Part shown: positions 1 to 9,596 of the stretch, piece after piece | How positions within the stretch are numbered: the stretch's first letter is position 1 | How the letters are laid out: every line of letters starts with the position of its first letter | Assembly: GCA_964501275.1 (NCBI GenBank) | Contig: CAZCSP010000010.1 | Coordinates: 28,798 to 92,797, forward strand | Reading direction: 5' to 3' | From: an uncultured Fimbriimonadaceae bacterium | GTDB lineage: Bacteria > Armatimonadota > Fimbriimonadia > Fimbriimonadales > Fimbriimonadaceae | DNA: 64,000 bases | Made by a program: the position numbers and the translations under genes | The notes under the pieces: model-generated | What the model saw: the letters and a program-made list of their open reading frames with translations, nothing else | Told to the model about the DNA's origin: nothing | Databases searched by the model: none

Positions 1-651
1 GGCAAGGCAGTCCTCGGCGAACTTGAGATTGGGAGGCGGCGCGTCCAATTCCGCCGTCCTCGCCAGCCCCCATAGAACCTCCGCCGTGGTCTGATAGCAG
101 TCCCGATAGCTCATCGCCTCAGACATGGACACATAGCCGCCCGCGATGGGCGATAGCCAGGGTTCCGCTTCCCTCACCTTCTCGCCCGTGGAAACGCATG
201 CATCAAAGGGAGGGAGGTACCCACTCTCCTCCATCAGCTTCAACTCCGCCCACACCAACGCCACGATGGGCTTCGCGTGGGATTCGATGGCTTTCAACGA
301 ACCGACCAACAGATCGAACGCGCTCTCCATCGGCTCCCCCCAAGGGAGGATCGCTGCATAAAGCTCGATCAGGGCCAGGGCCATGCCGAGACGCTCGTAG
401 TCGGTGCGCAGACCACGAAATGAGTGGAGAGGCTGGGCCTGGGTCACAAACTGGTTGACCTTCCCCTTTGCCAAAGTCATGGTCGCCATAGTCAGAGGAT
501 CGGATGAGCCCGCCAACCGAGAAGCCGCCTTCTTCGCCCCCTTCGCCACCACATCGACCTTGCCAAGCTCCTTGGTCAACAAAGTCAACCGCCGATCACT
601 CTCCCCCGAATCTCGACGGCGAAGAACGATCGCGGCGACGGTGGTTTCCAT
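1..651 (-). CDS. recO: DNA repair protein RecO (3' end cut by window edge)
   Basis: Own translation of the minus strand from ATG at 651-649: METTVAAIVLRRRDSGESDRRLTLLTKELGKVDVVAKGAKKAASRLAGSSDPLT... It stays open to position 1 (217 codons). The N-terminal pattern is typical of the RecO OB-fold. It is absent from the ORF track because no stop lies in the window. Confidence 0.8.
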   Translation of the reverse strand, partial: METTVAAIVLRRRDSGESDRRLTLLTKELGKVDVVAKGAKKAASRLAGSSDPLTMATMTLAKGKVNQFVTQAQPLHSFRGLRTDYERLGMALALIELYAAILPWGEPMESAFDLLVGSLKAIESHAKPIVALVWAELKLMEESGYLPPFDACVSTGEKVREAEPWLSPIAGGYVSMSEAMSYRDCYQTTAEVLWGLARTAELDAPPPNLKFAEDCLA

Positions 652-661
652 GAGGGTATTC

Positions 662-726
662 GGCGTTTGGCTTTGGGTTTTGGGTGTTTGACTTATCGGC
701 CCAATCCGACCAATCTGCCAAACGCC
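662..726. repeat. Intergenic GT-rich word block with perfect 10-bp inverted repeat (GGCGTTTGGC 662-671 / GCCAAACGCC 717-726)
   Basis: Read directly. Lies between the recO start and the stop of the upstream 258-aa gene. Contains GGTTTTGGGTGTTTG-type words and GACTTATCGG/CCAATCCGACCAATC words. Confidence 0.7.
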
Positions 727-753
727 CAATACCTAAAGTCTATCGCCATACGC

Positions 754-1530
754 CTACTGCCCCAATATCCCCTGCTTCAAGAACTCGATCCACACGAAGT
801 ACATACGATCGATGAGAAGTGTGAAGCGCATCATAACCGTGGAGCCAAAGATCGCGCCGAAGCCGATCATCAGCAGCCAGCGGCCGCTGGTGGTCATCGT
901 CTTCATGACCTTGCCCTTGATCTCGAAGCTAAACAGGAAGTAGCTCAGGACGCAGAGGAGGGTGAAGACATAGACGATATTGGTCAACGCTTCGGTCGGA
1001 TAGACATTGGCATTGATTCTCGCCGTCTCCGCCGCAATCTGCGCCAGTTGGTCGGGCGCCATTCCATCCACCGCTGTTGGCGTGGAAGGCACAAAGAAGG
1101 ACTCGGTTGAGGTCGGCAAAATCGGCTTCATCGAGTCGCGCATCTGCGGTCCGTACCGGTTGAACCACACCTGGATCTGTTGCCCCGACCACATGCCAAG
1201 GATAATCCCGATAGGAATCCGGCTCAGCCAGTTGTGCTTCTTGCTGAAGACAAAATAGCCCAGCAGACCGATGGGGATCAACAGAACGAACGCCCAATAT
1301 CCGTGGGTCGCAGGATCGCCGTTGGTGGCTGCGCTCCCCACCACTTTGTCCCACCACTTCTCTTTGAGCGTTTCGGTCCAAAGGATGACCAGAGCCCAGC
1401 CAGAGGCCAAGCCCAGGAAGATATGTTCGAAGAACCGATAGAAGCGGTTCTCCTTAAAGAGAACCGAATACAAGCCGATCGTCGCCAGAACGCCAATCGC
1501 AAGTTTGAGCTTAATGTAGTTAGGATCCAC
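754..1530 (-). CDS. Polytopic membrane protein, unknown function (operon gene 6 of 6)
   Basis: 258-aa ORF. Its GTG start abuts the TAA of the upstream gene (1531-1533). Several hydrophobic helices are visible (LAIGVLATIGLYSVLF, IFLGLASGWALVILW, WAFVLLIPIGLLGYFVF, IVYVFTLLCVLSYFLF, LLMIGFGAIFGSTVMM). No recognised motif. Confidence 0.75.
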   Translation of the reverse strand: MDPNYIKLKLAIGVLATIGLYSVLFKENRFYRFFEHIFLGLASGWALVILWTETLKEKWWDKVVGSAATNGDPATHGYWAFVLLIPIGLLGYFVFSKKHNWLSRIPIGIILGMWSGQQIQVWFNRYGPQMRDSMKPILPTSTESFFVPSTPTAVDGMAPDQLAQIAAETARINANVYPTEALTNIVYVFTLLCVLSYFLFSFEIKGKVMKTMTTSGRWLLMIGFGAIFGSTVMMRFTLLIDRMYFVWIEFLKQGILGQ

Positions 1531-2451
1531 TTACTTGGCCTTCCTTCGAGTCAAGAATGTGCCGACGTTGCCCACCGTCACCGCGATGATCAGCAACAGC
1601 AGACAGGCATGGAGAGTGGGATAGTACCGAGACCCATTTCCCACGTTGTTGTCGCCGGGGAAGCCGGGAACAACGCCCCACTTTGACTTCATCTCCGCGG
1701 TGATGCCGTCCTCCATGAGCTGCTCCATGTCGTAAACCCCTTTCAACCCAACCGCCAAACCCTTGATCTGTCCAGACGAGTAGTAAGGCATCGATTCGGG
1801 ACCCATAACGCCGGTCACCATCATCGCCAAGTCCACACCTTTGCCGTAGATTCGCTCGATTGTGATGTTCGAGGTTTTGGAGGCCGTGATGACCATCATC
1901 AGCTTGAAGTCCGATACCTTCTGGATGTTTTGGAGCACAGGCGATTGGAACACGTCGCGCTTGGTTCCTTCCGGTGTATTCTCCGTTCGACCCGAGAATG
2001 CGGACCGCACGTTGTTCGCGATCGCGTTGGCGCAGGCCTCGGCGTTGGGGAAGAATCCAACCGTCACCCAGTCGTTCCATCGGTCATACGTCTTCTGCCC
2101 TTTTGCACGACGTTCCTGATTGAGTATGCCGATCGCATCGCGGGCCACCTGAGGCGCTTGAGGATCGCCAGATGAGTACAGCGCCATTTTGATGTTCCGA
2201 CGCATCAGAATCTTCACAAGCGCGTCGAAACTCCCGCCGCTCTCCCCACGCGTGGACTTCGTCCAGTCGGATGCCACCAGGATGGTAGAGCCCTCGGGGA
2301 TGCTCATCAACGTGCCATAGAGGTCGATGGCTGGTTCAATCGGCTTATTGGGAACCTTGATCGTCACAAACAGCGGAACTGATGCAAAGACGAGCAGGAT
2401 CACAAACAGCGCCCAACGGGGAATGGACATCAGTTTTTCGCCAAAACTCAT
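1531..2451 (-). CDS. Bitopic membrane protein with large central soluble domain, unknown function (operon gene 5 of 6)
   Basis: 306-aa ORF. Its ATG overlaps the upstream stop as TAATG at 2451. It has an N-terminal helix (WALFVILLVFASVPLFV) and a C-terminal helix (LHACLLLLIIAVTVGNVGTFL) flanking about 250 aa. No recognised motif. Confidence 0.8.
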   Translation of the reverse strand: MSFGEKLMSIPRWALFVILLVFASVPLFVTIKVPNKPIEPAIDLYGTLMSIPEGSTILVASDWTKSTRGESGGSFDALVKILMRRNIKMALYSSGDPQAPQVARDAIGILNQERRAKGQKTYDRWNDWVTVGFFPNAEACANAIANNVRSAFSGRTENTPEGTKRDVFQSPVLQNIQKVSDFKLMMVITASKTSNITIERIYGKGVDLAMMVTGVMGPESMPYYSSGQIKGLAVGLKGVYDMEQLMEDGITAEMKSKWGVVPGFPGDNNVGNGSRYYPTLHACLLLLIIAVTVGNVGTFLTRRKAK

Positions 2452-3377
2452 TACGATTTACCTCCGACGCCACCCTTCTCAAGGCTAAGCCAAATGCGAA
2501 GTCCCATTGCCAGGGCTCCAATTCCCACTCCAAAGTCGATACCGCGTATGGCGGCGCCCTGGACCGTGTCGCGAAGCCACTTGGATATCTCCGTCAACTT
2601 CAAGTTGTGCATGAAGCTATCGGGGTTGTTGCGGATCGCTCCGTCGATCGCCCCGTTCCACAAGTATTCGACAGCGCCCATCAAGCTCAGGATCACGACC
2701 AGCGCCGTCACCAGCAGGATGGTCGCTTCAATCGACCGCACTCGAAACGCTCGATAAGCTGCGGAGAGGATATAGAAGGCGATAATCGAGAACATCGCCG
2801 CGTCCATGTTCTGCAACAGGCCATCGAACATCATGTCCTTGGCGCTGTTCACAAAGGTCCAATTTGACGGGTCCTCAAGGAGGATGCCCGCCTCGCCCTG
2901 TCGAATGATCCAGTCCCAGTAGCCGATAACGGTCATCAGCACCATGCTGGCCAACAGCACAACGCTGAACGCCCAGTCCCTCTGCGACTTGGCGATCCGG
3001 CGAAGGTGAACCCTCAACAGCGAGTAGATGCCCAAACCAAGCAAGAGGCCGGAAAGAACAGAGGAGAGGTCGGTGACGATGCCAAAAGCGTCGTCGATAT
3101 AGAACGAGACAGACTCCACGAAGTCGCGAGGCAGTTCGCCTGGCTGCCTGTCCACCGGCCTCGGCCAGAAGAAATAGAGAACATAGAAAAGGCCCGAGAT
3201 GAACGTGGAGAACATCACGATCGGTCGCCGTGCCTGGCTTGGGGCCTTCATCAGAAGAAAAACCATCGCCGCGCCCGCCAGTAGCGCCAAGATGATCTTC
3301 GTCCAAAGGCCAACGCTTCCGTTCTCTCCGTTCCAGAAGTTCAGGGTTGGCTCAACTTGTAAGAGAAGATTGCCCAT
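2451..3377 (-). CDS. Polytopic membrane protein, unknown function (operon gene 4 of 6)
   Basis: 308-aa ORF. Its ATG overlaps the upstream stop as TAATG at 3377. It carries multiple hydrophobic helices. No recognised motif. Confidence 0.8.
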   Translation of the reverse strand: MGNLLLQVEPTLNFWNGENGSVGLWTKIILALLAGAAMVFLLMKAPSQARRPIVMFSTFISGLFYVLYFFWPRPVDRQPGELPRDFVESVSFYIDDAFGIVTDLSSVLSGLLLGLGIYSLLRVHLRRIAKSQRDWAFSVVLLASMVLMTVIGYWDWIIRQGEAGILLEDPSNWTFVNSAKDMMFDGLLQNMDAAMFSIIAFYILSAAYRAFRVRSIEATILLVTALVVILSLMGAVEYLWNGAIDGAIRNNPDSFMHNLKLTEISKWLRDTVQGAAIRGIDFGVGIGALAMGLRIWLSLEKGGVGGKS

Positions 3378-4351
3378 TAGCCACCTTCTCCTTCAGTAGG
3401 CGGTGCCGCTGATTTGAAATCAGGGTCCTTTTCGCGTTCGACCTTCAAGTCGGGGTCGGTCTGCTTGCTAAAGAGTTTGCTCATATAGGTGTCGCCCAAG
3501 CCCATCGGCCTAGGTTGATCCAGCGTCTGTAACTTGGCCGCTTTCTTCTCTTCGCTAATCGTCTTGTGCTCAAAGGGGCCAAGCTCCACCGTATTCGCCA
3601 CCAGCCCAATGAACATCGTGGCCGCCACCGCCAGTTTGCACCAATCCTGGCCCACCAGCGACCCTACCAGAACCGGCTGTCGAGTCAGGTAGGCGCTGGC
3701 CGCATAGAACTCGTCTCCGATGAGAACATAGTCGCAAGCGGCAATAAAGAACGGCGTCTGGGTGGACTCCGTAGAGCTTGCGATCTGGATCGCACCGATG
3801 GAGTTTGCCGTCTCGGCAAAGATCAGCGACTCGGCGTAGAACTCGCCCATAAAGAACGTCGCCGCCGCCTGTTCGCGCAGAATCAAACCCGAAACGCCCG
3901 CCGCAAACGCGAACTGCCTGTCCGAGATGTACCGCACGGAATCGGGATCGAATTTGTCGGCAAGGCCCTCTTGGTTATAGACATCCCGAATCACCTCTTG
4001 GCCAACAGTAAATATCGGGGCGCTGTAGCAGCAGATCAGGATCGGGTTGGAGAATCGCGCCGCGATTCGGCTGACATAGGAGAAGATGTTCAACGCCTGA
4101 ACGACGATGGCGTTGACGCTGTCGCTCAGTCCCGGAACCATCAGAACCGGGCGTCCCATCTCCGTTGCACGGCCCACCGCTTCGTCGATCGCGTTCAAGC
4201 CCGCGATCCTCCGAATGAACAGGTCCTTCGCGCCTCCCGCCCGCTTGATGTTCAGCAGGATGAAGATGCATAGGAGAAGAGTAAACGCCGGATTGACCCA
4301 CCCGGTGTCCAGATACTGGTCTCCCCTCCAAGAAGACACTTGACTTAGCAT
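3377..4351 (-). CDS. Membrane protein, unknown function (operon gene 3 of 6)
   Basis: 324-aa ORF with a 7-nt overlap (ATGCTAA) with the upstream gene. It has an N-terminal helix, then a region reading RRIAGLNAIDEAVGRATEMGRPVLMVPGLSD, further hydrophobic segments, and a charged Lys/Glu/Pro-rich tail. I vaguely associate it with an uncharacterised DUF family but cannot verify this. Confidence 0.8.
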   Translation of the reverse strand: MLSQVSSWRGDQYLDTGWVNPAFTLLLCIFILLNIKRAGGAKDLFIRRIAGLNAIDEAVGRATEMGRPVLMVPGLSDSVNAIVVQALNIFSYVSRIAARFSNPILICCYSAPIFTVGQEVIRDVYNQEGLADKFDPDSVRYISDRQFAFAAGVSGLILREQAAATFFMGEFYAESLIFAETANSIGAIQIASSTESTQTPFFIAACDYVLIGDEFYAASAYLTRQPVLVGSLVGQDWCKLAVAATMFIGLVANTVELGPFEHKTISEEKKAAKLQTLDQPRPMGLGDTYMSKLFSKQTDPDLKVEREKDPDFKSAAPPTEGEGG

Positions 4352-4656
4352 GAGGCTTCCTCCGCCGGAGCCGGCTTCGCGCGACCCCTCTCAATACGAT
4401 CTAACAATCTATCCACATTTTCTCGCTTGGCAAACAGCCGACTGTAGTCGTTCACAAAATCGAATCCCAGGAATGGGGTGATGAAGGGCGCAAAGGTGAT
4501 TGCGCTCTGGCTGGTGAGGAACGCCAGAGGCTTATGCGACTCCAAGAACATGAGCGCGGGCGCCGTCAGCTTCCGCCGCTCGATCTCGCTCGCCGCCTTC
4601 TCGATCAGCGCCTCCTCCTCCTCCGGGGTCAGTTCATCCTTCCAAAAATCGGACAT
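4345..4656 (-). CDS. Small membrane-associated protein, unknown function (operon gene 2 of 6)
   Basis: The ORF track gives 4345..4668 with a TTG start. The ATG at 4656 (MSDFWKDELTPEEEEAL...) is preceded by a GGGGGTGG Shine-Dalgarno-like run. It overlaps the upstream stop (4634) by 23 nt. There is a hydrophobic stretch PLAFLTSQSAITFAPFITPFLGF. Confidence 0.7.
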   Translation of the reverse strand: MSDFWKDELTPEEEEALIEKAASEIERRKLTAPALMFLESHKPLAFLTSQSAITFAPFITPFLGFDFVNDYSRLFAKRENVDRLLDRIERGRAKPAPAEEASC

Positions 4657-5080
4657 CGCCACCCCCAAATCTACGAACCGCCTCGATGATCTGCGCCCGG
4701 TTGTCTTCGTTCACTTTCAAAACAACGCCTCGAAACGCATCCATTCGACTTCCCCCGTCTTCCAACGGCGACACCTTTACTTCGTTTTCGCCGATCACAA
4801 TCCTTTTCACGTCTTCCCAACCGATCTTGCTGATCGAGAGCCCCGTCCGAGAAGTCGCTCCCTGAGCGTCTACTTTGTACGAAGACCCTACCCAAAATTC
4901 AACCGTTGACCCAAGGATGATAGCAAACCCGACGAATCCTAGCAATGGCTGACCGTAGATAAACACCCCGAACGCCATCGCAACCAACGCAATTGCAAAG
5001 ATTACGTATCTCTTTGCAGGCGCCTTTTCATAAGGACGCACCGACCACGAGATCGATTCATCGTTCTTATCGCCAGTCAT
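4634..5080 (-). CDS. Two-helix membrane protein with C-terminal soluble domain, unknown function (operon gene 1 of 6)
   Basis: The ORF track gives 4634..5083 (TTG), and an ATG sits at 5080. It overlaps the prs stop codon (5067-5069) by 14 nt. Helices are VIFAIALVAMAFGVFIYG and LLGFVGFAIILGSTVEFWV. Confidence 0.75.
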   Translation of the reverse strand: MTGDKNDESISWSVRPYEKAPAKRYVIFAIALVAMAFGVFIYGQPLLGFVGFAIILGSTVEFWVGSSYKVDAQGATSRTGLSISKIGWEDVKRIVIGENEVKVSPLEDGGSRMDAFRGVVLKVNEDNRAQIIEAVRRFGGGDVRFLEG

Positions 5081-6074
5081 CAAACAACGAACTCACAGAC
5101 AGGTTTTGGTGGATGCGGGCGATGGCTTCTCCGACCAGCGGAGCCGACTCCAGCACCGTCAATTTCTCGAACTGCTTCTCCGGGCCAAGCGGAATCGTGT
5201 CCAGAGTGACCACCTCTTTGATCGGGCTTTCCTGGAGCCGCTGAGCCGCGCCGTCGCTGAAGACCGCGTGGGTGCAGGTCGCCATCACTTCCTTGGCCCC
5301 CCGATCCAACAGCGCGATCGCCCCATTCACCAGCGACCCGCCCGTATCGATCATATCGTCGATGAAGATGCAGGTCTTATCCTTGAAGTCGCCGACGATC
5401 TCCACGACCTCCACCACATTCGGACGGGGACGCCGCTTGGCGATGACCACAAAGCTGGTCCGCAGCATCTCCGCCAACGCCTTGGCGCGGCCTACCCCGG
5501 CGACGTCCGGGCTCACGATCACCACGTCCTCCCGATCCCGATACCCCTGCTCGATCAGGTAGTCGCCGATAATCGGGCGACCGTAGAGGTGGTCCACTGG
5601 GCAGTTGAAGAAGCCCTGGATCTGGTCGGCATGGAGGTCCAGCGCCACGACTCGCTGGGCGCCCGCCATGGTGATCATATCCGCCACTAAACGCGCCGTG
5701 ATCGGCTCACGAGGCTTGACCTTTTTGTCCTGCCGGGCGTAGCCGTAGTAGGGCATCACGACCGTGATCTTGCTAGCAGACGCCCGACGGAAGGCATCCA
5801 GCATGATCATCAACTCCATCAGATTGTCGTTGGTGGGAGCGCAGGTGGGTTGGATGATGTAGACATCATTCCCCCGGGCGCTTTCGTCCACCATCACCTG
5901 GATTTCGCCATCGGCGAAATGCTTGCAGGTGATCGAACCCAACTTGATCCCTAGATGCGCCGCCACACGCTCTGCCAACGCCCGATTGGCATTGCCCGTG
6001 AAAAGCTTCATGCCCCGTAGGTTTCGCGTTGCGATCACCTTTCCCTCTTCTTGTTCCGCCACTGTGCTGCCCAT
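5067..6074 (-). CDS. prs: Ribose-phosphate pyrophosphokinase (PRPP synthase)
   Basis: MKLFTGNANRALAERVAAHLGIKLG...DGEIQVMVDESARGNDVYIIQPTC...VMPYYGYARQDKK...DLHADQIQGFF...IDDMIDTGGS are canonical Prs motifs. The ATG at 6074 has a GAGGTTAAGGA Shine-Dalgarno sequence. An alternative start is at 6011. Confidence 0.95.
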   Translation of the reverse strand: MGSTVAEQEEGKVIATRNLRGMKLFTGNANRALAERVAAHLGIKLGSITCKHFADGEIQVMVDESARGNDVYIIQPTCAPTNDNLMELMIMLDAFRRASASKITVVMPYYGYARQDKKVKPREPITARLVADMITMAGAQRVVALDLHADQIQGFFNCPVDHLYGRPIIGDYLIEQGYRDREDVVIVSPDVAGVGRAKALAEMLRTSFVVIAKRRPRPNVVEVVEIVGDFKDKTCIFIDDMIDTGGSLVNGAIALLDRGAKEVMATCTHAVFSDGAAQRLQESPIKEVVTLDTIPLGPEKQFEKLTVLESAPLVGEAIARIHQNLSVSSLFDDWR

Positions 6075-7417
6075 TGTTCCTTAACCTCAGTCCGACTCCG
6101 GCCGATAACCAACGCTTCCGAGGGATAGTCGCCACTGCTGACCACGCTCCCCGCCGCGACAAACGAACCATCCCCAATTTTGATCGGGGCCACCAACGTG
6201 CTATTTGATCCGATAAAGGCATCCCGCCCAATCTGGGTGCGGGACTTGTTGAATCCGTCGTAGTTGCAGGTGATGGTCCCGGCCCCGATATTGGTGTTCT
6301 CGCCGATGATCGCATCGCCAATGTAAGTCAAGTGGCTGGCCTTCACTCCGGTCTCGAGCGTGGCGTTCTTCGTCTCCACAAAGTTCCCCACCTTCACATC
6401 GGGGAAAAGCTCGCTCCCTGGGCGGATATGGGCGAACGGGCCGACTTTGGCGGTGTCGTGGAGCTTGGCCTCTTTCAGGTAGCTCACATAGACCATGACC
6501 TGATCCCCGATCTGGCAATCCTCGATCCGGGTGAACGGCCCGATGCGGCACCCCTTTCCTACCGAGGTCTTCCCCACGATCATGGTGTTGGGTTCCAGCG
6601 TGGTGTCCACGCCGATCTCGACTTCCGCGCCCAGATAAGTTGTGCCGGGATCCATGATCGTAACACCAGATTCGGCATGGCGGCGCAAAATCCTTTCGCG
6701 CATTTTCCGATCCGCCTCGGCAAGTTGCCAGCGGTCGTTGACGCCCACCAGAATGTCGGGATCGTCGAACGTCATCGCATCCGCCGCCCCTTGCTCCGCA
6801 ACCATCGCGACCACGTCGGTCAAATAGAACTCGCCCTGAGCGTTGTCGTTCTTCAGCTTGGGCAGGCAGTCGAGGAGGGTGGGCCCGTCGATGCAGTAGA
6901 TGGAGGAGTTGACCTCGCGGATCGCTTTCTCTTCGGGAGTCGCATCCTTCTCCTCCACGATCCGCTGAACGCCACTTCCATTCCGCACGATCCGCCCATA
7001 ACCTTTGGGGTTCTCAACGTTCGAACTGGCGATCAGACACTTGGTGGTTTTGGAACCTCCGTGGATGAGATCGGAGAACATCTCGCTGGAGACCAAGGGC
7101 GTATCCCCCGCCGCGACCACAATCTTCCCCTGGAAGCCTTCGAGCAGAGGAGCCGCCATCTGAGCCGCGTGGCCCGTGCCGTGCTGTTCGCGTTGCCAGG
7201 CGTACTCATAGGCGTCGCCCAAACGTTGCTGAACCAGTTCCCCGCCGTGCCCGACGACGATTACGATGCGGTCCACTCCCGCCCCCCGCAAAGCCCGCGC
7301 CACGTGCTCCACCATCGGAAGCCCACAGACCTCGTGCAAGCCCTTCGGGATGTCCGACTTCATCCGGGTGCCTTTTCCGGCGGCAAGGATGATTCCGGCA
7401 ACAGCTTGAGTGGACAT
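6035..7417 (-). CDS. glmU: Bifunctional UDP-N-acetylglucosamine pyrophosphorylase / glucosamine-1-phosphate N-acetyltransferase
   Basis: MSTQAVAGIILAAGKGTRMKS (LAAGKGTRM motif), plus C-terminal hexapeptide repeats (IGENTNIGAGTITCNYDG...). The ORF track extends to a TTG at 7486, but the ATG at 7417 fits the family N-terminus. Confidence 0.95.
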   Translation of the reverse strand: MSTQAVAGIILAAGKGTRMKSDIPKGLHEVCGLPMVEHVARALRGAGVDRIVIVVGHGGELVQQRLGDAYEYAWQREQHGTGHAAQMAAPLLEGFQGKIVVAAGDTPLVSSEMFSDLIHGGSKTTKCLIASSNVENPKGYGRIVRNGSGVQRIVEEKDATPEEKAIREVNSSIYCIDGPTLLDCLPKLKNDNAQGEFYLTDVVAMVAEQGAADAMTFDDPDILVGVNDRWQLAEADRKMRERILRRHAESGVTIMDPGTTYLGAEVEIGVDTTLEPNTMIVGKTSVGKGCRIGPFTRIEDCQIGDQVMVYVSYLKEAKLHDTAKVGPFAHIRPGSELFPDVKVGNFVETKNATLETGVKASHLTYIGDAIIGENTNIGAGTITCNYDGFNKSRTQIGRDAFIGSNSTLVAPIKIGDGSFVAAGSVVSSGDYPSEALVIGRSRTEVKEQWAAQWRNKKRER

Positions 7418-7504
7418 AGATTTGTTAAGGACCGGAAACCGGGCGGGGTGATCGGAGGTTAAGATTTTGCCTTTTTTCCCCCGCAAAGCGCAAGGTGGGG
7501 AGAT

Positions 7505-7600
7505 GGCATTCGGCGTTAGGTGCTAGGTGTTAGGCATCGGGGAGCCGACTTGCTTACTCAACCCCCAACACCCAATACCCAATGCCCAACACCAAATGCC
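7505..7600. repeat. Imperfect long inverted repeat built of 7-nt words (TTAGGTG-type arm 7505-7543, CCCAACA-type arm 7562-7600)
   Basis: Read directly, in the glmU/upp divergent intergenic region. About two thirds of arm positions are complementary, and most mismatches are transitions. The same word family occurs at 32411-32522. Confidence 0.7.
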
Positions 7601-7627
7601 GTCACCCCGTCTGAGCCAAAATACGCT

Positions 7628-8248
7628 ATGCCGCTCCACGTCATCGATCATCCCCTCGCCCAACACCTACTCACCGGCCTTCGCGACAAATCCACCCAGC
7701 CCGAGACGTTCCGCCGCCTAAGTTGGAACCTCACCAAGATGCTGGTCTTGGAAGCGACCAAAGGGATTGCGTCGGAAGAGCGCTCGATCGTCACCCCGAT
7801 CAAAACCACTGCCGGGCGTATTCTCAGCGAAGGCCTCGCCGTCGTCCCCGTCCTCCGCGCTGGGCTTGGGATGTTGGAGCCGGTGGTGCAGCTTTTCCCC
7901 GATGTGGCGGTGGGCTACATCGGCTTGGAGAGAAACGAGAGCACCGCCATCGCGCGCAGCTACTACTCCAAACTCCCCGACCTCTCCCACCGGTACACCC
8001 TCTGCGTTGATCCCATGCTCGCCACCGGAGGCTCCGCCGCCCAAGCCGTCTCCCTCATCAAGGCCCACGGAGCAAAGAAGGTCGTCATGGTCTGCGTCGT
8101 CGCCGCCCCCGAAGGCGTAGCCAAGCTTGAGTCCGCCCACCCCGAAATCGAAATCTTCACCGCCGCGTTGGATGAAGGCCTAAACGAAAAATTCTACATC
8201 GTCCCCGGCCTGGGCGATTACGGGGACAGGCTGTACGGCACCTTTTAG
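7628..8248 (+). CDS. upp: Uracil phosphoribosyltransferase
   Basis: MPLHVIDHPLAQHLLTGLRDKST...VPVLRAGLGM...DPMLATGGSA...YIVPGLGDYGDRLYGT are canonical Upp motifs. The ATG at 7628 was verified. The ORF-track start at 7520 would translate the heptad repeat (PTPNTQCPTPN) and is rejected. Confidence 0.95.
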   Translation: MPLHVIDHPLAQHLLTGLRDKSTQPETFRRLSWNLTKMLVLEATKGIASEERSIVTPIKTTAGRILSEGLAVVPVLRAGLGMLEPVVQLFPDVAVGYIGLERNESTAIARSYYSKLPDLSHRYTLCVDPMLATGGSAAQAVSLIKAHGAKKVVMVCVVAAPEGVAKLESAHPEIEIFTAALDEGLNEKFYIVPGLGDYGDRLYGTF

Positions 8249-8251
8249 AGT

Positions 8252-8272
8252 GCGGCAATTTATTGCCGCTTT
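8252..8272 (+). terminator. Hairpin GCGGCAAT-TT-ATTGCCGC followed by TTT, 4 nt after the upp stop
   Basis: Read directly. The stem is short and the T-run is weak. An inverted twin (CGGCAATAAATTGCCG, 8309-8324) is preceded by AAAAA, so it looks like a minus-strand terminator. Confidence 0.45.
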
Positions 8273-8431
8273 CACTGGCCGATTCATCGGCCTGCAAAGC
8301 CTGAAAAACGGCAATAAATTGCCGCACCCTGAAAGGAGCGCAACTTTTGCGCGTCAGAGAGTAGAGCGAACTCGTCTCCTTTCTTGACGACACCTGTGCA
8401 TAGTCTATAGAATGGCGTCACGGGGCGGCCC

Positions 8432-8920
8432 TTGATGGCTTTCCTGTATCTGGGAGGAAAGGAATTGCAACCTGAAACGAATTCTGGAGATTTTGTCGCC
8501 GATAAGGTGATCGCGATTTTGGTCATGATAGGCGGGGCTTGCGGAGCCTGCGGCGGCTTGGGGATGGCTGGGTTTTCCGGTCTTATCGGTGCCCTTGGCG
8601 CGGCTGGTACAGCCGGTGGCGGGGGAGCAGATGCCGCGGCGGTTGCCGGGTTTGGCGCCCTCGGAACTGTGCTCGGTATTGCCTACATTGCTTTGGGAAT
8701 CGTTGCCTTCATAGGAGCCCTAGGAATGTTCAAAGCATTGCGCAAAGGCTTTAACCAGGTCATGATCGTCATGGCCATCCTTGCCATAGTGAGTCTGGTA
8801 ACGATCTTCACGTTCAACAACGTCACTGGCGGAGTCGGAAGCGCAGTATTCTACAGTGCCTTTGCCTACTACTGCTGGGGCAGGATGAACGGCAAGATTG
8901 GTCCTGCCAACCTTGCGTAG
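8432..8920 (+). CDS. Gly/Ala-rich small membrane protein, unknown function
   Basis: 162-aa ORF with hydrophobic helices and a GGACGACGGLGMAGFSGLIGALGAAGTAGGGG low-complexity region. No recognised motif. Confidence 0.6.
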   Translation: MMAFLYLGGKELQPETNSGDFVADKVIAILVMIGGACGACGGLGMAGFSGLIGALGAAGTAGGGGADAAAVAGFGALGTVLGIAYIALGIVAFIGALGMFKALRKGFNQVMIVMAILAIVSLVTIFTFNNVTGGVGSAVFYSAFAYYCWGRMNGKIGPANLA

Positions 8921-8945
8921 CCAATCCGCTTCATAATTCCTGGCG

Positions 8946-9596
8946 ATGTCCATCGCCAGGAACCTTGCCCAAATCCAAGCCCGCATCGCCCAAGCCTGCG
9001 AGAGCGTGAACCGGGATTCTGCCGACGTCACCCTTATCGCGGTCTCCAAGACTTTCTCCACCGACGACATCAAGCAAGCCTACGACGCCGGGCATCGCCA
9101 CTTTGGCGAGAGCCGTCTGCAGGAAGCTCAGCCGAAGATCGAGGCCTTGCCCATCGACATTGTCTGGCACTTCATCGGTCATCTGCAATCCAACAAAGCC
9201 AAGAAGGTTGCCCAGCTTTTCGAGGTCGTCCACACCCTCGACAGCGAATCCCAGCTCACAGAAATCACCAAGGCGGGACGCCCGATCGAGGGTTTCATCG
9301 AAGTGAATATTGCGAACGAACCGCAAAAAGCAGGTATTTCGCCCGAATCGCTTGACGAATTCGCCCAAACCGTACTAAGCTATTCCCAGGTTCATTTAAC
9401 AGGGCTGATGGCAATTGGCCCCACGGTGATCGATTCGGAGCTATCGCGGCCATTCTTCCGCCAGCTTCGGAACCACGCTCACCGCTTGGGAGTCCAAAAG
9501 CTGAGCATGGGAATGAGCCAAGACTTTGATGTGGCGATCCAGGAAGGAGCCACCCACATCAGGGTAGGAAGCGCGATCTTCGGATCTCGCGATTAG
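8946..9596 (+). CDS. yggS: YggS-family pyridoxal-phosphate homeostasis protein
   Basis: LIAVSKTFS (PLP lysine), HFGESRLQEA, WHFIGHLQSNKAKK, LMAIGP, SMGMSQDFDVAIQEGATHIRVGSAIFG. Confidence 0.9.
   Translation: MSIARNLAQIQARIAQACESVNRDSADVTLIAVSKTFSTDDIKQAYDAGHRHFGESRLQEAQPKIEALPIDIVWHFIGHLQSNKAKKVAQLFEVVHTLDSESQLTEITKAGRPIEGFIEVNIANEPQKAGISPESLDEFAQTVLSYSQVHLTGLMAIGPTVIDSELSRPFFRQLRNHAHRLGVQKLSMGMSQDFDVAIQEGATHIRVGSAIFGSRD

Follow-up and report, generated by a model that had tools for sequence, protein, structure and literature searches.

The window analysed here, a 64,000-nt stretch of a Fimbriimonadaceae contig, carries a compact run of four genes, g3 to g6, whose products we infer from conserved synteny to make up a four-subunit complex of the inner membrane that is widely conserved and uncharacterised. 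The order and strand of g3-g4-g5-g6 were kept in 74 of 87 occurrences, drawn from 80 genomes besides the window and about a dozen phyla, and the exceptions were mostly contig ends. Because this gene order is conserved so widely, yet no member resembles a protein of known function, the cassette looks like an undescribed membrane machine.

In the window, the cassette follows glmU, prs, and two smaller genes, g1 and g2 (Table 1). The sequence-only reading had described six same-strand ORFs after glmU-prs, and their lengths were as claimed; we add that all six lie on the minus strand. The junctions that it had listed were also present: an overlap of 14 nt between the prs stop and the g1 ATG (5067-5080), one of 23 nt between g1 and g2 (4634-4656), an ATGCTAA overlap between g2 and g3, TAATG overlaps at both g3/g4 and g4/g5, and the TAA of g5 abutting the GTG of g6. 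At its other end prs overlaps the glmU stop by 40 nt, so that the run from glmU to g6 has no gaps between genes. The public gene call for glmU (442 aa, start at 7363) is shorter than the longest ORF and matched the Pfam families NTP_transferase and Hexapep (L001). We found GGAG-type Shine-Dalgarno motifs upstream of g3 to g6, a second, independent gene prediction gave all six products as well, and the exact sequences of all six were present in a public protein collection. Stoichiometric co-synthesis of the products is plausible, judging from the translational overlaps.

Table 1. Genes of the glmU-prs-g1-g6 run, in coordinates of the window
Feature	Coordinates	Strand	Basis
glmU (context, outside the system)	6035..7486	-	longest ORF, TTG start 7486
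prs, ribose-phosphate pyrophosphokinase (context)	5067..6074	-	Pribosyltran_N and Pribosyl_synth
g1, 148 aa, ATG start, accessory	4634..5080	-	hydropathy, positive-inside counts
g2, 103 aa, ATG start, accessory	4345..4656	-	hydropathy, alignment
g3, 324 aa, signature subunit (Pfam DUF6754)	3377..4351	-	PF20539, AlphaFold2 model
g4, 308 aa, polytopic subunit	2451..3377	-	alignment, hydropathy, positive-inside counts
g5, 306 aa, helix-domain-helix	1531..2451	-	AlphaFold2 model, positive-inside counts
g6, 258 aa, GTG start, polytopic subunit	754..1530	-	alignment, hydropathy, positive-inside counts

We defined the DUF6754 cassette operationally as a DUF6754 gene followed by homologues of g4, g5, and g6, in this order and on the same strand, with short or no gaps, and the window contains such a cassette. 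Across loci, the median intergenic gaps between g3, g4, g5, and g6 were 3, -1, and -4 nt. A g4 homologue adjoined g3 in 80 of 81 loci, g5 was present in 78 and g6 in 73, and the loci without g6 were mostly contig ends. The DUF6754 family, and apparently the cassette with it, was found in at least 600 bacterial species-level genomes, mostly of uncultured phyla; the 80 genomes surveyed for gene order include members of Armatimonadota, WOR-3, Zixibacteria, Latescibacterota, Eisenbacteria, Stahlbacteria, Coatesbacteria, Poribacteria, and Ignavibacteriales. Scattered homologues, which the sequence-only reading had named as an outcome that would count against it, were thus clearly contradicted, since g3 to g6 remain neighbours in a fixed order in about a dozen phyla. 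Its picture of a uniform six-gene unit gave way to a four-gene core, g3 to g6, joined by the g1-g2 pair in about half of the loci. Since homologues of all six genes are conserved and g3 to g6 are syntenic across phyla, the six-gene arrangement goes beyond chance.

The signature subunit g3 matched Pfam PF20539 (DUF6754) with E = 2e-91 and 306.2 bits (cut-off 27) over model positions 13-250 of 257, and its relatives in other phyla matched equally well. This curated family for g3 corrects the sequence-only reading; the other five products have no Pfam or NCBIfam family. The Pfam entry is that of a domain of unknown function and covers g3 alone of the six, and the literature that we searched contained no mention of DUF6754. 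The family comprises 1993 clusters at 50% identity; cross-phylum identity of g3 is 39-52%, with 41 invariant residues among 92 sequences. The predicted topology places the N-terminus outside, followed by TM1 (17-36), a cytoplasmic domain, TM2 (~238-258), and a periplasmic tail of ~65 aa. In an AlphaFold2 model of moderate confidence (pLDDT 71, pTM 0.53), the very highly conserved cytoplasmic domain is predicted to be Rossmann-like and is flanked by helices, the same kind of layout as in g5. The top Foldseek matches of this model in the PDB were of the HUP class, a class of nucleotide-binding Rossmann-like folds, and included NAD synthetase, the class I tRNA synthetases TyrRS and TrpRS, and USP, none of them significant (E >= 0.04, TM-score ~0.3, for a model of pLDDT 71). 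HUP membership is judged by the fold together with a nucleotide-binding loop after strand 1 (SGGxDS, HIGH, or the USP motif G-x2-G-x9-G-S/T); in the g3 alignment this loop, read by eye, is P-G-L-S-D, none of the canonical motifs, and inspection of the alignments by eye found no canonical P-loop, PP-loop, or HIGH motif. Among 150 family representatives, 129 carry N-terminal extensions of 30 to >400 aa, and a signal-like hydrophobic start was seen in 96 of the 108 with a Met start and an extension of at least 60 aa. NCBI names for these extensions are FN3, with one PQQ-like beta-propeller, and one C-terminal CBM6 match was weak and sub-threshold. Armatimonadota g3 has only a short tail and no ectodomain, whereas other phyla show variable signal-peptide ectodomains.

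For g5, the earlier description of a helix at each end of a domain of about 250 aa was borne out by a confident AlphaFold2 model (pLDDT 93.7, pTM 0.90). The protein is predicted to have both termini inside, with helices at 13-31 and 282-300 enclosing a periplasmic domain of ~250 aa, which is doubly wound alpha/beta and Rossmann-like in the model. When this model was compared with the PDB by Foldseek, no fold matched above a TM-score of 0.33, and a VWA domain appeared at rank 32 (E = 0.02). From hydropathy and positive-inside counts, the conserved core of g4 is predicted to consist of six transmembrane helices with both termini inside; Armatimonadota have an additional, N-terminal seventh helix. 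An invariant motif, S-A-x-x-R-x-F-x-x-R-x-x-E, lies in the cytoplasmic turn that connects TM4 with TM5, and 9 of 38 g4 homologues gave a weak TMD0_ABC match below the cut-off. In g6, six helices are predicted with both termini outside, and the last is glycine-rich and conserved (G-x-x-F-G-x-T-V-M-x-R). Positive-inside counts over the alignments thus predict opposite orientations for g3 and g5 and for g4 and g6. In the predicted arrangement, each face of the inner membrane carries a conserved Rossmann-like domain, that of g3 in the cytoplasm and that of g5 in the periplasm, and g4 and g6 join the two.

Two small accessory proteins are encoded by g1 and g2, which have homologues in 38 and 44 of 80 related loci, respectively. 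Hydropathy agreed with the two-helix anchor proposed for g1, whose predicted topology, consistent with positive-inside counts, is an N-terminus inside, a transmembrane hairpin (25-43 and 46-64), and a cytoplasmic domain of ~80 aa. Sub-threshold matches to bPH_6 or YcxB came from 5 of 36 g1 homologues (best E = 0.007, in 4 of the 36), and g1 of the window gave none. Membrane-anchored bacterial PH-domain proteins (bPH, YcxB) share with g1 the N-terminal hairpin and the ~80-aa domain, but every match to these families is below threshold; by these sequence matches, the g1 domain may be PH-like. The earlier claim that every product has obvious hydrophobic helices stood for five of six; by hydropathy, g2 has no segment at the threshold for a transmembrane helix, only a moderately hydrophobic conserved stretch. 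Its conserved segment P-A-x-x-F-L-E-x-x-K-P-L precedes a charged helix at the C-terminus. In other phyla the pair is located elsewhere, often beside a GlmL/MutL-type ATPase, and in FCB-group phyla (Fibrobacterota-Chlorobiota-Bacteroidota) g2 lies after g6 or adjoins that ATPase. Flanking genes of the cassette in Zixibacteria, Coatesbacteria, and others are a g2-like gene and those for an ASKHA ATPase of the GlmL/MutL family and for a protein of 377 aa; this protein, encoded just upstream of g3 in some FCB-group loci, weakly matched NqrA_N/RnfC_N barrel-sandwich domains at E = 1e-3 to 1e-2, below the Pfam cut-offs. These arrangements are compatible with the ATPase and the 377-aa protein acting as a cytoplasmic energising or regulating module; neither is present in the window.

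We compared g1 to g6 with Pfam, NCBIfam, PADLOC, and PDB sequence profiles, and the g3 and g5 models with the PDB by Foldseek. Apart from g3 and DUF6754 there was no significant match, and no member matched a characterised complex or transporter in Pfam or NCBIfam, which upheld the proposal of an undescribed multi-subunit membrane system. ABC transporters, including type VII/MacB-like and GldAFG systems, were rejected, as the six proteins gave no ABC_tran, FtsX, MacB_PCD, or ABC-2 match. By analogy, the cassette may resemble mechanotransmission-type machines, namely the type VII ABC systems MacB, LolCDE, and FtsEX and GldF/GldG of the gliding ABC system, in combining polytopic subunits, a helix-flanked periplasmic domain, and a cytoplasmic alpha/beta domain, a design that works outside the membrane rather than transporting a solute across it. 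Unlike these systems, it has no ABC ATPase and no Walker or ABC signature, its cytoplasmic domain is itself anchored by two helices, and the g5 fold has no PDB match. Na+-NQR and Rnf likewise consist of several membrane subunits and have, on either face, alpha/beta domains anchored by a single helix, but the cassette has no flavin or iron-sulfur motifs; no Nqr or Rnf subunit was matched by any of the six proteins, and the NqrA_N-like protein is absent from the window. Wzz/Wzc co-polymerases and GldG-like or BatA-like proteins share the g5 layout, but no such structure was returned by Foldseek and there was no Pfam match. The ion-driven 5:2 motors (MotAB, ExbBD, TolQR, GldLM, ZorAB) were also rejected, with no MotA_ExbB or ExbD match in Pfam, NCBIfam, or PADLOC and with different topologies.

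We tentatively favour, with low confidence, a reading in which the cassette is a transmembrane coupling machine linking one side of the membrane to the other. A ligand in the cytoplasm, most likely a nucleotide or phospho-compound, would bind the g3 beta-sheet at its conserved C-terminal edge, and the resulting change would be relayed through the helix bundle of g4 (6-7 TM helices, C-terminus inside) and g6 (6 TM helices, both termini outside), which would form the membrane core. The periplasmic g5 domain, together with the outward g3 ends, which in other phyla are predicted to carry FN3, beta-propeller, or carbohydrate-binding modules, would in turn hold, move, or otherwise act on an envelope component or a macromolecule. 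The translational overlaps would serve the joint making of the subunits. A more specific version, which we regard as quite unlikely, takes g3+g4 and g5+g6 as oppositely oriented halves, each a two-helix-anchored Rossmann-like domain with a six-helix subunit. They would build an inverted, pseudo-symmetric hetero-tetramer of a previously unseen class, coupling a cytoplasmic ligand or nucleotide site to periplasmic or cell-surface work and energised in some lineages by the GlmL-type actin-fold ATPase. If true, such a machine would be ancient, common to Armatimonadota, FCB-group candidate phyla, and Poribacteria.

The cassette might instead be a solute transporter, an explanation that we consider unlikely but worth keeping in view, in which g4 and g6 would form a two-subunit permease, g5 a tethered periplasmic substrate-binding or gating domain, and g3 a cytoplasmic regulatory domain; its logic would resemble that of TRAP or TTT transporters or of a permease with a USP-type regulator. 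In agreement with it are the two conserved 6-TM subunits, whose helices are glycine-rich and which have conserved charged residues where they meet the membrane boundaries, as well as the membrane-anchored periplasmic alpha/beta domain of g5 and the weak HUP/USP-like fold matches of g3 and g5. However, no transporter family of Pfam or NCBIfam resembled either the single proteins or 37-38 members of each family, the g5 model found no counterpart among the many periplasmic binding-protein folds of the PDB, a search of g4 and g6 found no internal repeat, and large, variable FN3, propeller, or CBM ectodomains would be unusual for a solute permease. Both g4 and g6 may represent a divergent version of a known transporter fold, the Foldseek comparison having covered the g3 and g5 models. 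The variable g3 ectodomains, set against a highly conserved cytoplasmic module, follow the usual design of bacterial receptors, and a signalling complex would have them sense an external cue that the invariant DUF6754 domain relays, with g4 to g6 as co-receptor or scaffold. In four WOR-3 loci, a PATAN (DUF4388) protein and two roadblock-like ORFs (as judged by eye) come directly after g6; such parts are typical of small-GTPase polarity modules. We consider a receptor improbable, since there is no known output or transmitter domain and no partner regulator shared across phyla, Armatimonadota g3 has no ectodomain, and three more strictly co-conserved membrane subunits exceed what a receptor usually needs.

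The gapless run in the window, a layout that recurs in related genomes, suggested an envelope-biogenesis machine tied to UDP-GlcNAc supply. Its substrate would be a polymer containing GlcNAc, to be flipped, polymerised, or anchored, and this role would explain co-transcription with glmU and prs. The glmU-prs adjacency is confined to 13 loci of Fimbriimonadales- and Chthonomonas-type Armatimonadota; loci of Capsulimonadaceae, Armatimonas, and Armatimonadales lack it, and in all other phyla prs does not adjoin the cassette. Because the adjacency is limited to these 13 loci, the envelope role that the sequence-only reading had drawn from it is weak. Moreover, glmU-prs is itself a common housekeeping pair, as in gcaD-prs-ctc of Bacillus subtilis, and the placement of the cassette behind it is a lineage-specific accident of operon layout. 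Sporadic neighbours fit an envelope role: purF in L044 and L045, a SIS protein of the PGI type in L079, and, close to five loci outside Armatimonadota, glmU-like nucleotidyltransferases. The frequent FN3 ectodomains and the single weak, sub-threshold CBM6 match fit it as well, but the locus survey found no neighbour outside the cassette that is conserved across phyla. With no signature of a glycosyltransferase, flippase, Wzy/Wzx/WaaL, or polysaccharide co-polymerase in Pfam, NCBIfam, or Foldseek, we think this explanation very doubtful. Finally, we give almost no credence to unrelated genes packed in a compact genome or to a mobile or defence island. Genes in the window are often tightly packed, and glmU and prs overlap as well, but the order and adjacency of g3 to g6 are kept across phyla; none of the six proteins matched PADLOC, a tblastn search of 72,556 plasmids and 50,697 phages gave no match to g3, and GC content across the whole window (0.55-0.61) is ordinary.

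These findings define g4, g5, and g6 as obligate partners of DUF6754 that lie outside every Pfam and NCBIfam family and for which we found no structure or paper, and we propose that g3 to g6 be named and modelled as one unit in annotation. A four-subunit inner-membrane complex that is inherited strictly as a set and has conserved domains on both faces would likely serve a basic cell-envelope, transport, or surface function in phyla, such as Armatimonadota, WOR-3, Zixibacteria, Latescibacterota, and Eisenbacteria, that are known almost entirely from metagenomes. Judging from MAG loci assigned to Armatimonas, Chthonomonas, Fimbriimonas, and Capsulimonadaceae, cultured Armatimonadota appear to carry a minimal version of the cassette, and its function would therefore be accessible to experiment.

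Six open reading frames, g1 to g6, lie downstream of glmU and prs on the minus strand. Their lengths and order agreed with the sequence-only reading, as did every junction: prs and g1 overlapped by 14 nt, g1 and g2 by 23 nt, and g2 and g3 as ATGCTAA, TAATG occurred at both g3/g4 and g4/g5, and the TAA of g5 directly abutted the GTG of g6. GGAG-type ribosome-binding motifs were present ahead of g3–g6. Gene calls in a publicly available assembly of this sequence were identical to g1–g6, and the exact products of all six were present in a collection of 15 billion proteins.

Features of the glmU–prs region and the six downstream ORFs (window numbering)
Feature	Position	Strand	Product	Remark
glmU	6035-7486	-		public gene call begins at 7363
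prs	5067-6074	-		
g1	4634-5080	-	148 aa	
g2	4345-4656	-	103 aa	
g3	3377-4351	-	324 aa	
g4	2451-3377	-	308 aa	
g5	1531-2451	-	306 aa	
g6	754-1530	-	258 aa	GTG start

Taken from its annotated ATG, prs shares 40 nt with glmU (6035–6074, minus strand); in-frame alternative starts of prs are GTG at codons 5 and 13 and ATG at codon 22. On the same strand, recO begins ~100 nt beyond the end of g6; its 5′ portion occupies window 1–651 and the rest lies outside the window, and eight related loci of Armatimonadota likewise have recO after g6. The g6–recO gap yielded no terminator-like site, and promoter, terminator, and Rfam scans of window 1–9000 returned nothing above chance. Upstream of glmU and divergent lies upp, encoding UPRTase (7628–8248, plus strand), beyond which follow a Gly/Ala-rich putative membrane ORF of 162 aa (8432–8920, plus strand) and a 216-aa ORF (8946–9596, plus strand) that, from reading its sequence, may be of the YggS-type PLP-binding kind.

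Profile-HMM comparison with Pfam and NCBIfam, proposed for all six proteins, yielded a curated family for g3, the Pfam family DUF6754 (E = 2e-91), and left the other five unmatched. NCBIfam and PADLOC returned no match for any of g1–g6. With PADLOC matches at 0/6, no tblastn match to g3 among 72,556 plasmids and 50,697 phages, and an unremarkable GC content (0.55–0.61 across the window), a defense or mobile-element reading was rejected. One-by-one Pfam scans of 36–39 diverse homologues of g1, g4, g5, and g6 produced no recurrent or consistent match, and PDB sequence-profile searches with diverse alignments of g1–g6 gave nothing under E = 0.3. Foldseek searches of the PDB with the g5 and g3 models retrieved only generic Rossmann-type matches (TM-score ≤ 0.36). 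DUF6754, PF20539, and PF13941 were unmentioned in the literature searched, a broader query on Armatimonadetes returned nothing relevant, and close homologues were named Armatimonadota or Fimbriimonadaceae. Judged by these profiles, g3 is formally a DUF6754 member, and the remaining proteins fit no existing family.

An exhaustive HMMER scan resolved the g3 family into 1993 clusters at 50% identity (643 with E < 1e-30), and scanning one genome per GTDB species found g3 in at least 600 species. We compared synteny in the 80 best loci of these species together with the window's own contig, 81 loci in all. The 80 best loci came from Armatimonadota (Fimbriimonadales, Chthonomonas, Capsulimonadaceae, and Armatimonas) and from WOR-3, Stahlbacteria, Zixibacteria, Eisenbacteria, Latescibacterota, Coatesbacteria, Edwardsbacteria, Poribacteria, Ignavibacteriales, and Vulcanimicrobiota. 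Plain phmmer searches of every ORF in these loci, with the window proteins as queries, recovered g3 in 81/81 loci, g4 in 80/81, g5 in 78/81, and g6 in 73/81, and the accessory genes g1 and g2 in 39/81 and 45/81, respectively. The synteny sought by the sequence-only reading was found for g3–g6: across phyla, the one-strand order g3-g4-g5-g6 was kept in 74 of 87 g3 occurrences, with median gaps of 3, −1, and −4 nt. The exceptions traced to contig ends or to split ORFs, apart from a single g3 that is truly orphaned. Clustering of the remaining neighbor ORFs in the 81 loci found none conserved across phyla. From this fixed order and the lack of cross-phylum neighbors, it follows that four genes make up a self-contained cassette, accompanied facultatively by the g1–g2 pair, so that the six-gene unit originally described is revised to four plus two, g1 and g2 no longer counting as constant members. 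The loci show four membrane proteins co-inherited in fixed order from overlapping or abutting genes.

Two cassettes per genome were found at L029, L037, L042, L073, and L082 (loci of relatives, each with its own coordinates). The orphan, a WOR-3 DUF6754 gene without g4–g6 (L028:9686–11359), is the sole true synteny exception; the ORF after it looks methyltransferase-like.

Hydropathy analysis of g3 gave two helices, and its AlphaFold2 model (pLDDT 71, pTM 0.53) has a Rossmann-like alpha/beta domain between them, with a beta-hairpin within the Armatimonadota-specific tail; the top Foldseek matches of this pLDDT 71 model were HUP-class proteins (a nucleotide-binding Rossmann-like fold class) and non-significant. 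Identity across phyla was 39–52%, and 41 residues were invariant among 92 sequences, including G-R-x-x-E-x-G, Q-F, R-E, A-E-x-L-x-x-A-E, I-Q, Q-x-P-F-F, C-D, G-x-E-x-x-A-A-S-A, and D-x-x-K; read from the model secondary structure and the alignments, they cluster in loops after strands. Among the invariant residues are R61, E64, E174, Q189, C206, D207, and E214, and the soluble domain spans residues ~40–235. In 129 of 150 representatives the N-terminus was extended, by between 30 and more than 400 aa, and a signal-like hydrophobic start occurred in 96 of the 108 with a Met start and an extension of at least 60 aa. Homologues of the Fibrobacterota-Chlorobiota-Bacteroidota group (~390 aa) run signal peptide, FN3-like domain, helix, DUF6754, helix. 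One homologue carries a PQQ-type beta-propeller, and in one the region that follows the second helix matches CBM6 weakly, below threshold. Lys plus Arg flanking helix 1 came to 4.45 just after it versus 0.92 before. Together, the signal-like extensions, the added modules, and this asymmetry place both termini of g3, by prediction, outside and its conserved domain in the cytoplasm.

Among representatives P0241–P0390, DUF6754 proteins ranged from ~240 to 1272 aa, and six had C-terminal extensions of more than 100 aa. An N-terminal ectodomain of at least 400 aa without Pfam or PDB match was present in 41 of 150 representatives, and for two particularly long homologues, of 1066 and 1272 aa, searching the PDB returned no match to their ectodomains.

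For g5, hydropathy indicated two helices, and a confident model (pLDDT 93.7, pTM 0.90) confirmed one helix at each end of a soluble domain, here a doubly wound alpha/beta domain; against the PDB, Foldseek found nothing above TM-score 0.33 for it. Arg/Lys values were 2.41 and 3.74 at the termini versus 1.36 and 1.15 facing the domain, which places the g5 domain, by prediction, in the periplasm. Hydropathy gave g4 about seven helices; its family core has six predicted helices with N- and C-termini inside and an invariant motif, S-A-x-x-R-x-F-x-x-R-x-x-E, at a predicted cytoplasmic turn; in Armatimonadota an extra N-terminal helix precedes this core and the periplasmic loops are longer. About six helices were predicted for g6, its N- and C-termini lying outside, together with a loop on the periplasmic side that is long and variable. 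From these predicted sides, the cassette would consist of two oppositely oriented pairs, g3 versus g5 and g4 versus g6. Comparisons by hhalign of g3 with g5 and of g4 with g6 were non-significant, with no sign of paralogy, as were those of the N- and C-halves within g4 and within g6, leaving topology as the sole basis of the inverted-pair idea.

The claim that g1 is a two-helix anchor plus a small domain held: from an inside N-terminus, a transmembrane hairpin leads to a small predicted cytoplasmic domain, for which homologue scans gave sub-threshold bacterial PH-domain matches only. Hydrophobic helices had been ascribed to every product; this was right for g1 and g3–g6 and fails for g2, because no g2 segment exceeded the transmembrane threshold. 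In Zixibacteria, Coatesbacteria, Vulcanimicrobiota, and several MAGs, g1-/g2-like genes adjoin those for a GlmL/MutL-family (PF13941) actin-fold ATPase of ~600 aa and a 377-aa protein with weak NqrA_N/RnfC_N barrel-sandwich matches, often between two cassette copies; both genes are absent from the 64-kb window. A twelve-gene supercluster of Zixibacteria (L082:10001–21157; also L042, L037, and L063) comprises a first cassette (a DUF6754 gene with its three partners), then a g2-like gene, an ASKHA ATPase of the GlmL/MutL family (~604 aa), DUF6134, a 378-aa protein weakly matching NqrA_N/RnfC_N, and a second complete cassette. At four WOR-3 loci (L039:9364–11435, L047, L060, and L041), g6 is followed directly, with gaps of 0–3 nt, by a DUF4388 (PATAN) gene and two ~200-aa ORFs without Pfam match that, by reading, look roadblock/LC7-like. 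These genes may form a cassette-linked polarity or small-GTPase-type regulatory module.

glmU and prs are a common housekeeping pair, and neighbor ORF clustering found them upstream of the cassette only in 13 Fimbriimonadales-/Chthonomonas-type loci; the link is therefore lineage-specific. A functional tie to glmU-prs as a general property was rejected on this ground, the envelope role hinted at through co-transcription is left unsupported, and a GlcNAc-linked envelope machine is quite improbable. In unrelated phyla, the cassette has the gene of a PRPP-using or -making enzyme immediately upstream, possibly by coincidence: purF in WOR-3 and Latescibacterota (L044:619–2055 and L045:3245–4693), with prs as the Armatimonadota counterpart. 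A receptor complex is improbable, and a plain solute transporter is somewhat unlikely. We tentatively favor, as one possibility, a coupling or mechanotransmission machine, because the g3 cytoplasmic domain is very highly conserved, its invariant residues cluster in post-strand loops, its ectodomains vary, and ATPase neighbors occur in other phyla.

The products of g1–g6 do not qualify as ABC transporters, including MacB and GldFG types, Nqr or Rnf complexes, 5:2 ion-driven motors, polysaccharide co-polymerases, GldG-like or BatA-like proteins, or defense systems. Four-gene synteny and the lack of a characterized match considerably strengthen the view that this is an undescribed membrane system. 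We rate the cassette as a putative new kind of system, g4 and g6 having been compared by sequence only, so that their folds could reveal a distant known kind. Conserved alpha/beta domains are predicted to lie on the two faces of the inner membrane, with two polytopic subunits joining them, and the outward-facing ends of g3 are predicted to serve as a platform for variable extracytoplasmic modules. The g3–g6 products would then form one complex that couples events across the membrane, with a macromolecule of the periplasm or cell surface as its possible target.
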